A DNA stretch of 63,381 bases, filler included, from Octopus bimaculoides (lineage: Eukaryota), in assembly GCF_001194135.2 (NCBI RefSeq). It is 4 parts of 4 records of this genome, joined end to end, with 100 filler letters (N's around TTAATTAATTAA, not from the genome) between each part and the next. Parts side by side here need not be neighbours in the genome. Positions count along the whole stretch, not along the records: positions 1 to 24,888 come from NC_069001.1; positions 24,989 to 50,720 come from NC_068985.1; positions 50,821 to 55,300 come from NC_068981.1; positions 55,401 to 63,381 come from NC_068989.1. One strand, 5' to 3'. Below, in pieces: positions 23,724 to 58,885 of this stretch. The position numbers and the translations under genes are program-made. How positions within the stretch are numbered: position 1 is the stretch's first letter; each line of letters starts with the position of its first letter. The notes beneath the pieces were generated by a model that saw only the letters and a program-made list of their open reading frames with translations, did no database searches and had not been told where the DNA came from.

Positions 23724-23761
23724 CCTTTTACGTTTGGAGCTTACGCTCTTCGATAGAAAGG
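23724..23761 (-). ncRNA. degenerate minimal type-I hammerhead-ribozyme-like motif (Penelope-like element end)
   Basis: Minus strand: CCUUU-CUAUCGA-A-GAGC(GUAA)GCUC-CAAA-CGUA-AAAGG. Stems I and II are perfect, but the core has 3 substitutions relative to CUGANGA/GAAA. Confidence 0.5.
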
Positions 23762-24572
23762 ATTAAGAGGGAAAAAATAGAGAATGAAAAAAGGAGAGAG
23801 AAAAAGTGCAGAGTTCAACGGTCCAACATGGTGAGATGACTGGAAAAAATAGCTTGAATGAAAGGGAGATAATAATAATAATAATAATAATAATAATAAT
23901 AATAATAATAATAATAACAATAATAATAATAACAGTAAAGATAATGGTGACACTCGCGAACTAAGGAGCGCAAGCGTGTGTGTACGTACGTGAGAATGGT
24001 GTGTGTGTGTGAGTGTGTATGTGTGTGAATCGGGGAAGAGTGATTCCAACGTGTGTTTGTGTATGTGTGTGTGTGTGTGTGTGTGTGTGTGTGTGTGCTG
24101 TCTGTGACAAAATAATGTGCATGTGTATAGTGTATGTTTGTGGGCGAAATTTACCTTTGTCTTTGCGTGTTGCGTGTGTTTATGCATTTTGTCTGTGCGT
24201 GTGTATATTGTCCGTGTTCAGCTATTATGTGCTCGCGTGGGTTTGGGGTGTGTGTACTGAGTTAAACTGTGTGAGTGTGGCTCTCTAGAGAAATTCGGCC
24301 AGACCGTGTCCTTGTTCCCCCTTATGGCTTCCCTCCCCTCACACATTCACGACAATAATGATGCTCTCCGTCTGTTTAACTCTCTCTCTCCTTCCATTCT
24401 GGCCCCTCTCAACTTCTTTATGCTAGACCACTGCTTTTAAATTGGTGTTAATTAAATTAATATCCAATTTATCACCCTCATCATTTAAATTATATATATA
24501 TATATATGCGAGTAAAAATAAATACAAAAAAGGTGGGTTTTTTTGTATGATTGTGTATAGAGGAATATATTA

Positions 24573-24863
24573 TTTTGCTTAAAAGAGTTCCAACACTGTC
24601 TGTTTTTTATGTTTTATTTATATTCCTGCAGAACTAATGTGGGGTATAGAATATGGAATATACAATATATAATATAATATACAATATATAATATAAAATA
24701 AAATAACATAAAAATGGATGGCACCCTGAAAGAAAGTATTGAATGTAGATGAAATATTGAGTGTTCAATATAAAGGATCAAATATATAAATATATAAATA
24801 TAAATATATATATATAAAGGCGACTCGAGTTTCAGGGCTATTTCCCTTCGTCATGGCCGGTAT
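24573..24863 (-). mobile_element. ~290-bp dispersed repeat (Penelope-like end), copy 1; copy 2 is at 50436-50720
   Basis: Near-identical to 50436-50720. Carries a hammerhead-like motif and AT-rich pentamer runs. Confidence 0.8.
24819..24858 (-). ncRNA. minimal type-I hammerhead-like motif with palindromic stem III
   Basis: Minus strand: GGC-C(A)UGACGA-AGGG(AAAUAG)CCCU-GAAA-CUCGAG-UC-GCC. Stem III ACUCGAGU is a palindrome. The core has one extra A. Confidence 0.55.
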
Positions 24864-24888
24864 GACAGACTTTATATATACATATATA

Positions 24889-24988
24889 NNNNNNNNNNNN
24901 NNNNNNNNNNNNNNNNNNNNNNNNNNNNNNNNTTAATTAATTAANNNNNNNNNNNNNNNNNNNNNNNNNNNNNNNNNNNNNNNNNNNN
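24889..24988. other. artificial assembly spacer N44-TTAATTAATTAA-N44
   Basis: Exactly 100 bp. An identical construct occurs at 50721-50820 and 55301-55400. The 12-mer has stops in all six frames. Confidence 0.95.
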
Positions 24989-25231
24989 CCCCTTGCTAGT
25001 TTGGCAAAGGGGAAACTGCTGACCTCCCCTGTTCGAAGGTTATAAAGGACACAGGTTTCGTGTGTCACATAGCTAGCTAGAGGCGATGGCTTCTTGGAGC
25101 TAATTCACGGCAGCTTTCGTCCTAATTTTGGGACTGCCATGTTGGCTTGGCGATAACTATTAATTTCCAGTACCGTTGCCGTAGTCTCCTTTAGAGAGAC
25201 TTAGAAATATTAATAACTCTCTCTCTCTCTA

Positions 25232-25706
25232 TATATCGATTTAAACAAGAGCTAAAATCTGATCCATTGAAAATACTTTATTATGATGACCTATGATCAT
25301 TTCGATGCAATATCCAGATCGATTCATGCATATTATAAAACATGGGATGCTGCATCTCCTCAGGGTCTTATTAGTAGAAGGCAGACAATAAAAATAGATA
25401 ACATTCATGAATCATTTGCTTGTTTTGATTACGGTTTAAACACCGTTATGCTGTACGGTTGTATTACATCTCATGTCTTTTTAACTTGTTTATTTACATG
25501 TAATCATAGGTCAACTATGACAGTTGTATATGAATGTTATCTATTTTTATTGTCTGCCTTCTACTAATAAGACCCTGAGGAGATGCAGTATCCCATATTT
25601 TATAATATGCATGAATCGATCTGAATATTGCATCGAAATGATAATAGGTCATCATAATAAAGTATTTTCAATGGATCAGATTTTAGCTCTTGTTTAAATC
25701 GATATA
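25232..25706. mobile_element. foldback MITE-like element, ~177-bp inverted arms, TA at both ends
   Basis: Arms 25232-25408 and 25530-25706 are reverse complements with about 4 mismatches. No coding capacity. Confidence 0.8.
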
Positions 25707-56888: not shown

Positions 56889-57300
56889 GGCGGTGAGCTG
56901 ACAGGGTCGTTAGCACGCCGGGCGAAATGCTAAGCGGCATTTCACCTCTCTCCACGTTCTGAGTTCAAATGCCGCCGAGGTCGACTTTGCTTTTCATCCT
57001 TTCGGGGTCGATAAAATTAGTACCAGTTACGTACTGGGTCGATGTAATCAACTTAATCCCTTCCCCAAAATTTGAGGCTTTGTGCTTCCATTAGAAAGGA
57101 TCATTATTATCATTTTTCATTAACACACCGAACAAAATGCTAAACGGCATTTTGTCCGTCTACACATTCTGAGTTCAAACTCCGCCAAGGTCGACATTGC
57201 CTTTTATTCTTTCGGGACTCAATAAAGTAAATACCAGTCAAGCTGGTGTAGTCGACTCTCTTTCTCTCCCTAAAATTCTTGTCCTTGTATCAAAGTTTGA
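56889..57300 (+). mobile_element. two tandem SINE family A copies (56889-57095; ~57120-57300)
   Basis: The family A core occurs twice after an (ATT)n/(GTT)n tract. Confidence 0.85.
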
Positions 57301-57924
57301 AATAATTTCTTATCAATTCTTTGTGAGAAATCCCGATTATTATCTACTGAGTTGAAGAGGTATAAATTTATATGAAAATCGTAAATAGGAAGTTGTGTCA
57401 TTTATGCATCTCCCACAGTATTTCACTCCACTTAATCTGAAAGTAAAACGAAATAGATTGCTTGAGGAAGAACTTGAATCATTCGCCGCTCATCAGGATT
57501 CTTCTTCTTGGGTTTATGGGGTTCATACTGTTAGAGAGTTGTATTCTAGCTCCGGTTCAGCGCTGACTAAAAAATCCTCAGATCATATGTGTTCCTTCCA
57601 TGACCACATCGTAGATATTCCGGTTTTTTTTTCCTCCCCCCCCCCGCCCCCATTTTTAAGACAATGCGGTGTGGATTTAATGGCAGGAAACGTCACTGAT
57701 ATTTTCAGTTAAGTTGAGCGGATTTGGTAACTCGCCATCGACGTTTCGATCGTCGTTGATGCTAGCAAGGGATCCTCTATGTTATCTCAAGGCCTGCAAC
57801 ACATAGCAGCAGAATCTCCCTCTAATTACGGCATGATGGACCCTAAATACATTCATAATTGCCTAACTTTTCAAAACACCGAACTGTTCGCCATCAGATA
57901 TATAGATGTAATATTCTTTTCTAT

Positions 57925-58175
57925 TCTAGGCACAAAGTCCGAAATTTGGAGGGAGGGGACCGATCGATTAGATCGACCCCAGTGCGCAAATGGTACTTAA
58001 TTTATCGACCCCGAAAAGATGAAAGACAAAGTCGACTTCGGTGGAATTTGAACTCAGAACGTAGCGACGGGCGAAATACCGCTCAGCATTTCGCCCGGTG
58101 TGCTAACATTTCTTATTTCTTTACAGCCCACAAGGGGCTACACACAGAGGGGACAAACAAGGACCACAGACAAAC
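57925..58175 (-). mobile_element. SINE family A with a fused tail of a preceding monomer
   Basis: Reverse complement: ..CCCCTTGTGGGCTGTAAAGAAATAAGAA|ATGTTAGCACACCGGGCGAAATGC.. Confidence 0.85.
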
Positions 58176-58176
58176 A

Positions 58177-58420
58177 GGCGTGGCTGTGTGGTAAGAAGCT
58201 TGCTTCTCTCAACCACATAGTTCTGAGTTCAGTCTCACTGCGTGGCACCTTGGGCTAGTAAGTGTTTTCTACTATAGTCTCGGGCCGATCAAAGCCTTGT
58301 GAAAAGAAGCCCAACTTATATGTATATATCTATGTGTGTGTGTCTTTTTGTCTCTGTTTGTTCCATCACCACCGCTTGACAACCGATGTTGGTGTGTTTA
58401 CGTCCCTATCAGGCAGTAAA
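58177..58420 (+). mobile_element. SINE family B with 3' extension
   Basis: GGCGTGGCTGTGTGGTAAGAAGCTTGC..CACTGCGTGGCACCTTGGG..CGCTTGACAACCGATGTTGGTGTGTTTACGTCCC. Confidence 0.85.
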
Positions 58421-58852
58421 AAAGACGCTATTCGATGTCTTTATCACCGATTATTTTAACAGTTGATTGGAGCATGTTAGCATTTTTCTTAACTTGCGCG
58501 AGTCAGGTTGATATCATGGGCAATTTTAAAGTTTCCCCATAAAAGCCATTGTCGGAAAACATGAATAACTGGGGAATATAAGAAGTTGACGGCAAAATTC
58601 CCTACTTTTTAGGACGAACGATTGTCATATTAATTACAAACGATTGTTAAATTAATTACCAATAGATAAATAAAAGATAATTTTGACTGTGCAACATAAT
58701 ATATTTATTTATGTGTAAGATAATACCGGCATACACACACACACACACACACACACACTTTTTTTTTTTTTTTTTTTTTTCATCATGTAACCTCGTGGGC
58801 ATCGGTACCATTTTCCTCTTTCTCCGTTCTTCCATTCTCCGAACTTTCCATC

Positions 58853-58885
58853 TTTCCGACGAAGGGCTACGCCCGAAACGTCATA
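58853..58885 (+). ncRNA. degenerate minimal hammerhead-like motif (Penelope-like element end)
   Basis: CCGACGA-A-GGGC(UAC)GCCC-GAAA-CGUC. U4C core change, palindromic ACGU, poor stem I. Confidence 0.45.

Follow-up and report, generated by a model that had tools for sequence, protein, structure and literature searches.

We analysed a stretch of 63,381 nucleotides from the genome of Octopus bimaculoides (assembly GCF_001194135.2), hereafter the window, which consists of four stretches joined end to end and contains five short motifs, spread over the four stretches, that resemble minimal hammerhead ribozymes. All five strings were confirmed at the positions and on the strands reported for them in a first-pass annotation of the same sequence (Table 1). 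That annotation took them for ends of several Penelope-like element (PLE) families or of non-autonomous ribozyme-bearing retroelements, and genome searches established that each motif belongs to a dispersed repeat family (here A, B, C and D); within the window, each of the five copies has its motif 54–315 nt from the 3' end of the repeat. Our principal reading, which we hold with considerable confidence, is that the motifs are minimal type I hammerhead folds in the pseudo-long terminal repeats (pLTRs) of four endonuclease-bearing PLE families, and that the copies are 5'-truncated insertions made, most likely, by target-primed reverse transcription from uncut RNA. That PLE ends carry hammerheads has been known since 2014 (PMC4209133; here and below, published work is cited from the available portions of each source).

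Table 1. Hammerhead-bearing repeats and their motifs in the window (clade names by motif; cleavage sites predicted).
Feature	Position	Strand	Remarks
Family A copy, 5'-truncated 3' untranslated region (UTR)/pLTR of an older Neptune-like PLE	23638–24280	-	Ends at TA run; 5' boundary approximate
Family A minimal type I hammerhead fold	23724–23761	-	Predicted cleavage-site base 23729
Family B copy 1, Neptune-like PLE 3' end (very young element)	24507–24873	-	Optional 3' tail present; between TA runs
Family B hammerhead fold, copy 1	24819–24858	-	Predicted cleavage-site base 24822
Family B copy 2, without 3' tail	50428–50720	-	5' side cut by stretch end
Family B hammerhead fold, copy 2	50676–50715	-	Identical to 24819–24858
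Family C pLTR piece from a coding Penelope/Poseidon-type PLE	52634–52744	-	5'-truncated; no tRNA head, no tail
Family C hammerhead	52683–52728	-	Canonical in family; predicted cleavage-site base 52688
Family D copy, 5'-truncated Neptune-like PLE 3' end (very young element, related to A)	58777–58974	+	Ends at TA run
Family D hammerhead relic	58853–58885	+	U4C throughout the family; stem I unpaired, stem II and palindrome retained

Judged on the window alone, the five motifs are hardly above chance; judged genome-wide, they are far above it. A hammerhead descriptor allowing at most one core mismatch had two matches in the window, both in family B, versus one in eight shuffles; with at most two mismatches the window gave 7 matches and the shuffles 0–2, and with at most three the numbers were 16 and 3–19. 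The descriptor did not match the copies at 52683 and 58853, where stem II and stem I, respectively, are broken as judged by eye, and the Rfam search suggested earlier returned neither a hammerhead nor a tRNA among the 150 window matches listed of 235, and neither of them on two C copies. Across the genome, exact flank-anchored patterns matched 73 times for A, 764 for B, 5,896 for C and 524 for D, and each reversed-pattern control matched nowhere. Searches for each family in this genome yielded 1,646–2,081 candidates, of which the best 40 were scored; identities to the window motif regions, which are biased upward as they come from best matches, were ~85% for A, 96–100% for B, 91–95% for C and 95–100% for D.

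The state of the catalytic core was examined with patterns in which the flanks were fixed and the core was left free, and was counted by eye among the rows listed (100 for B, C and D; 73 for A). The canonical core is C3 U4 G5 A6 N7 G8 A9 / G12 A13 A14 A15.1 / U16.1 H17 (definition from PMC3088659). The expectation that core substitutions are decay of individual copies, and that family consensuses would restore the core, holds for family C, where the 5' core strand is canonical in 84/100 listed copies of the 5,896 matches and A6C and the stem II mismatches are private to the window copy; the full canonical-core pattern has 4,028 matches genome-wide, nearly all of them C among the 100 listed. 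It fails for the other three families. A6 is kept in none of the 73 A copies, 65 of which have U, so that in the window copy only G5A and G12C are private and A6U is family-wide. In family B, whose fold has a stem I of 3 bp, a stem II of 4 bp and an 8-nt palindrome, 97 listed copies share one identical 5' core strand of 8 nt, with one extra base near C3/U4, and the 7-nt strand occurs in 0/100. Family D is of the U4C type in 96 copies and canonical in one, with stem I unpaired. Because these changes are family-wide, the non-canonical cores of A, B and D are inherited family traits, and from the near-identity of the B and D copies it follows that these families spread with a non-canonical core.

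Some details of the architecture described in the first-pass annotation need adjustment. The common layout stands, with the exceptions that pairing is not kept in stem I of the 58853 motif (TTT/ATA), that the extra A after the core is missing from B, which has the 8-nt strand instead, and that the proper palindrome of C is ACGU, the following U being the cleavage-site U. Nor are the four repeat contexts all unrelated, since A and D are connected through two sister loci (L414 and L433) that show 77–78% identity to the D copy and have an A/D-type 3' tail in common (by eye).

The assignment to PLEs is drawn from longer copies, which lie behind remnants of GIY-YIG endonuclease and reverse transcriptase (RT); for this reason the motifs are regarded as PLE 3' ends (pLTRs) and not as retrozymes. 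The proposed link to several PLE families is thus upheld, with GIY-YIG remnants upstream in all four families and RT in the B lineage and C. A search for GIY-YIG gave 149 matches among the best 150 of 2,390 candidates, and 119 loci were clustered. RT with a C-terminal GIY-YIG domain stands upstream of the end repeat in the B lineage and in C; A is linked by remnants, and D by an endonuclease alone, across a gap. Among B relatives, endonuclease open reading frame (ORF), 3' UTR and hammerhead are contiguous in loci L146 (92% to the window copies) and L236/L540 (97%), the B end directly following the ORF. B-lineage copies carry RVT_1 (E 3.7e-7, over the cut-off), GIY-YIG, RT motifs and a cysteine-containing (Cys) linker, and inverted pieces occur in L129 and L131; a PDB search with a B-lineage RT piece returned nothing relevant. 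Upstream of family A, 25 loci contained PLE protein remnants in 10 cases, the motif in 9 and both on one strand in 4, so that an endonuclease remnant lies upstream on the same strand in 4/25 loci, and the Cys linker is present among these remnants. For D, an endonuclease remnant followed by the D end was found in L334; walking upstream from D itself met no coding link and ran into CA-rich gaps. Insertion scars typical of PLEs, namely an inverted 5'-truncated copy and an optional tail, were counted in C and B, and TA microsatellites are the targets of A, B and D. By these motifs A, B and D appear Neptune-like (A and B by the Cys linker, D by its kinship to A), and C, which has no Cys linker, appears Penelope/Poseidon-like. 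As a separate observation, the A and B copies between 23638 and 24873 are ~230 nt apart in equal orientation, each finishing at a TA run.

Covariation of the stems between families was likewise borne out, both by B subfamilies and by 60 sister loci. In B subfamilies behind endonuclease genes, stems I and II and the palindrome change in step, and the 8-nt strand is kept in nearly all of them; L115 has the canonical 7 nt, and in Rfam this relative matches Hammerhead_HH9 (E 0.026) with a score under the gathering threshold. Canonical-core sister motifs numbered 157 versus 0 and 1,714 versus 62. In the 60 sister loci, pairing that extends past what the pattern demanded gives stem II at least 4 bp in 42 versus 19.3 after permutation and stem I at least 3 bp in 32 versus 26.8, values that are not independent tests as the loci are related to each other. 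U16.1 is found in 28/30 sister loci, although the search pattern did not require it.

Further PLE lineages were seen alongside. Loci L436–L465 represent another abundant Poseidon-type family (4,092 candidates) whose 3' UTR has its own canonical-core hammerhead (L436, ~2140–2180) and a 4-nt AT palindrome. Several clusters (L099, L101, L103, L104, L110, L114, L116; L100, L108, L109; L190, L213) are PLE 3' UTRs with a stem, GAAA and a 6-nt palindrome in which the 5' core strand is strongly decayed in several copies per cluster, which suggests more families that lost the core. Another three PLE lineages, each with thousands of candidates, are found in L466–L530, a set of 65 loci in which the hammerhead descriptor matched only once at up to 1.5 kb from the endonuclease.

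Family C differs from the others in its layout, which consists of a tRNA-derived head of ~73 nt, an (AAT)n tract, the canonical hammerhead and a tail. It was first suggested to be a short interspersed element (SINE) without partner, because in PLE loci of other lineages (119, 30 and 65) the endonucleases were not followed by any C-like end. This suggestion was overturned by an endonuclease C-terminus, reached through two loci whose sequences agree ahead of the head; in L061, L064, L339, L369, L372 and L530 it immediately precedes the head, its stop ~25 nt away. A search with this junction gave 1,613 candidates (best 40 scored), and the same junction recurs at 90–100% in many loci. In L558, remnants of RT, thumb and endonuclease lie upstream in the C element, and homologues carry PF00078. 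Because of the recurrent junction, and because ORF-bearing copies share the pLTR, the head is taken as part of the coding element; these ORF-bearing copies also show the inverted arms. The 3' ends of C are sharp, with no shared continuation among the 200 junctions listed; the tail is present in 11/30 and on some arms only. An inverted copy lies upstream in 40/60 loci (by BLAST; several loci overlap). Folding of the pLTR is no better than that of shuffles (z 0.44), and no RNA holder is listed on record for the family. A reading frame runs through hammerhead and tail with 1–2 stops per copy in four copies, which would fit an ORF start inside the pLTR by analogy with the elements PAc and Pen2a_Av; a search with this frame found only two octopus gene models and no PLE protein. 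In both models (P0001, P0002) a translated C pLTR piece forms the beginning; it is joined in one to dystrobrevin beta and in the other to what we take to be a cysteine-rich receptor-like protein, by exonisation or as an annotation artefact.

The head aligns collinearly with genomic tRNAs, with z 6.6–10.1 in three of four copies and 4.1 in the fourth, which was mis-cut; the reference comprised 18 distinct genomic tRNAs. Both internal promoter boxes, defined by their usual consensus, are kept. The window copy, being 5'-truncated, lacks the head. Among 76 head-bearing copies, 46 start within -7 to +5 of the head and 9 extend at least 20 nt upstream; starts of RNA polymerase III (Pol III) at the head would explain this clustering of 5' ends. 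T5 runs are absent from the coding strand and T4 runs number one at most, which is no fewer than composition alone would predict (P 0.12–0.78); in two copies the pLTR has no T4 run. Compared with tRNA-derived SINEs, C has the head with its boxes and lacks their non-autonomy, as the stop that precedes the head is that of an endonuclease encoded by the element itself. From these sequence features, we consider the chances about even that the head acts as a Pol III promoter that makes most short copies.

How the altered cores fit into the life cycle can be proposed from known PLE integration (PMC11167929, PMC8557442, PMC3846280). The PLE protein nicks AT-rich DNA and begins reverse transcription downstream of the hammerhead, at either of two positions; the resulting copies are 5'-truncated, may or may not have a tail and are frequently accompanied by an inverted arm. 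The motif is uncut in genomic copies. In PAc, a Poseidon element of Anolis, the tail marks two RT start sites, the ORF starts within the hammerhead, and hammerhead core mutants insert normally in vitro (PMC11167929). Families A, B and D would have multiplied in this manner despite fixed core changes, keeping stem II, GAAA and the palindrome, and the retention of these parts suggests a second, structural role. Judging by sequence, their altered cores are likely weak or dead cutters; U4C, A6C and insertions near C3 have low activity in other hammerheads (PMC3088659). If the variants prove inactive, A, B and D may be regarded as the in vivo counterpart of the PAc core mutants.

A more far-reaching proposal, which we consider less likely than not, is that a coding Penelope/Poseidon element sheds some ten thousand SINE-like tip copies from a built-in tRNA-derived Pol III promoter, which perhaps also transcribes the coding RNA, and that three other families keep a core-lost hammerhead as a protein-binding or dimerising fold rather than as a ribozyme. 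Several observations weigh against parts of our principal reading and of its Pol III step. Neither Rfam (two C copies) nor ARAGORN (0 genes in 22 C loci) calls the head a tRNA, and the protein pieces of C go unrecognised by Pfam. The start of the head lies within a short palindrome, so that fold-back could also fix the 5' ends, and of 51 copies starting at the head, taken from a later and partly ORF-selected set of 86, 34 adjoin an inverted piece and 16 do not. No junction between pLTR and ORF start was seen for C among the 200 junctions listed, and a full-length pLTR-ORF-pLTR copy was found for none of the four families in this gapped assembly, with part of the candidates scored. The D link consists of one locus across a gap of 1,211 N, and 0/25 further D loci were linked; stem I pairing in the sister families is weak (8/30, p 0.45; 24/30, p 0.09). 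Finally, the altered cores may retain some activity, as U4C and near-C3 insertions do elsewhere (PMC3088659).

Other explanations can be considered for the motifs as a whole and for their cores. The motifs could be non-LTR retrozymes, that is, tandem units with circular RNA, which would agree with the occurrence of type I hammerheads within short repeats. Yet the head-to-tail tandem units of 170–400 nt without a coding region that characterise retrozymes do not occur around the motifs, close C pairs are head-to-head in 11/11 cases and direct in 0/11, a direct C copy is found in 4/60 loci (L331 being two separate insertions), and all four families are tied to coding remnants. We consider the retrozyme reading largely refuted and very improbable. 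Alternatively, the altered cores may still be working ribozymes, as dimers or with help of a protein, and cleavage may belong to the cycle of each of the four families. Stems and palindromes of the B subfamilies covary while the 8-nt strand is kept, and predicted dimers are 2–6 kcal/mol more stable than two monomers, the best dimer of the A and B window copies pairing the palindromes; natural U4C and near-C3 insertion variants have low activity (PMC3088659), and the PAc hammerhead needs protein in order to cut (PMC11167929). We nevertheless regard continued cleavage as rather unlikely, given that D has also lost stem I and that the three families carry three different core changes. Raw RNA reads from three runs of organism A, which cover C and B in both mate directions, pass through the predicted sites of both without an end pile-up, a weak observation as the libraries are unstranded and fragmented.

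For family C, the clustering of 5' ends might instead result from self-priming by palindrome fold-back or from a Pol II start, the tRNA piece being a passive insertion. Palindromes at the 5' ends of pLTRs have been described (PMC3846280), and the palindrome and inverted pieces mentioned above agree with this explanation; the head-starting copies without an inverted piece, the retention of both promoter boxes and the two pLTRs without a T4 run do not. We treat it as a realistic possibility that falls short of an even chance. It is also conceivable that C is a separate tRNA-headed SINE with an acquired PLE tail and that ORF-linked copies are chimeras or its parent. Most C copies indeed begin at the head without ORF sequence, and the repeat is very abundant, with 5,896 exact matches and, as a passenger, a density of ~8.5 per Mb (12 in 1.42 Mb). 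This origin is quite unlikely in view of the single endonuclease-to-head junction at many loci and of the ORF-bearing copies with the same pLTR and inverted arms.

As to the role of the hammerhead in PLEs, one in vitro study found cutting dispensable (PMC11167929). The octopus genome offers natural pairs in which young families with fixed core changes stand beside canonical sister families, which makes a direct test possible. If our proposal for family C is true, a tRNA-type promoter in the end repeat of a coding retrotransposon would blur the line between autonomous elements and SINEs, and show one way in which SINE-like parasites can arise. In the literature covered, which leaves aside most subscription papers, repeat databases and Lünse et al. 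2017, we found no account of a tRNA-derived pLTR promoter or of fixed core loss in active PLE families.

The window contains several other repeats. A frame of 232 aa at 11797–12495 (-) is presumably a Tc1/mariner transposase remnant, and the open frames at 39531–39929 (-) and 42850–43368 (+) are, we assume from their motifs, remnants of LINE (long interspersed element) reverse transcriptase. A long tract rich in purines and, after it, a 30-nt tandem array (92–98% matches) across an assembly gap occupy positions 14560–16551, with several frames open. At 58178–58400 (+) lies a copy of a further short repeat that is very common, starts like a tRNA and is present in many retrieved loci, and a weak 33-nt match to the D hammerhead region at 55993–56025 (-; E 5e-4) is possibly an old sister copy.

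Among known systems, the motifs invite comparison with the metazoan PLE pLTR hammerheads of Cervera and de la Pena (2014; PMC4209133), with which they share a short stem I, an extra base between positions 9 and 10.1 (in A, C and D), palindromic 15.2–16.2, many consensus families per genome and mostly single motifs of truncated PLEs. In the giant squid, 235 Hammerhead_1 loci have been counted (PMC6962438). The families described here differ in their family-wide, non-compensated changes (A6U; U4C with loss of stem I; the 8-nt strand) in recently active families, whereas the core variants in the available part of PMC4209133 are only the U3-A8 covariant and a D. virilis variant. The Cys linker between RT and endonuclease (in the B lineage and A remnants) and the insertion at microsatellites are features of Neptune-clade PLEs (PMC8557442, PMC3846280). 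Compared with PAc (Frangieh et al. 2024, PMC11167929) and Pen2a_Av of Adineta (PMC3846280), whose pLTR promoters are described in these sources as TATA/initiator-type or none, the C pLTR has a tRNA-derived head at its start, together with (AAT)n. Metazoan non-LTR retrozymes (PMC7229834; bioRxiv 10.64898/2026.07.22.740005) resemble our families in having type I hammerheads and being short mobile repeats related to pLTRs, but our families form no tandem units and are tied to coding remnants (compare PMC7229834). The Sm-alpha SINE-like elements of Schistosoma (PMC6765202, PMC8490949) are similar to C in that a type I hammerhead comes after a Pol III-type promoter; they are tandem and have no coding region, whereas C resides in a coding PLE and is dispersed, with its close pairs head-to-head.

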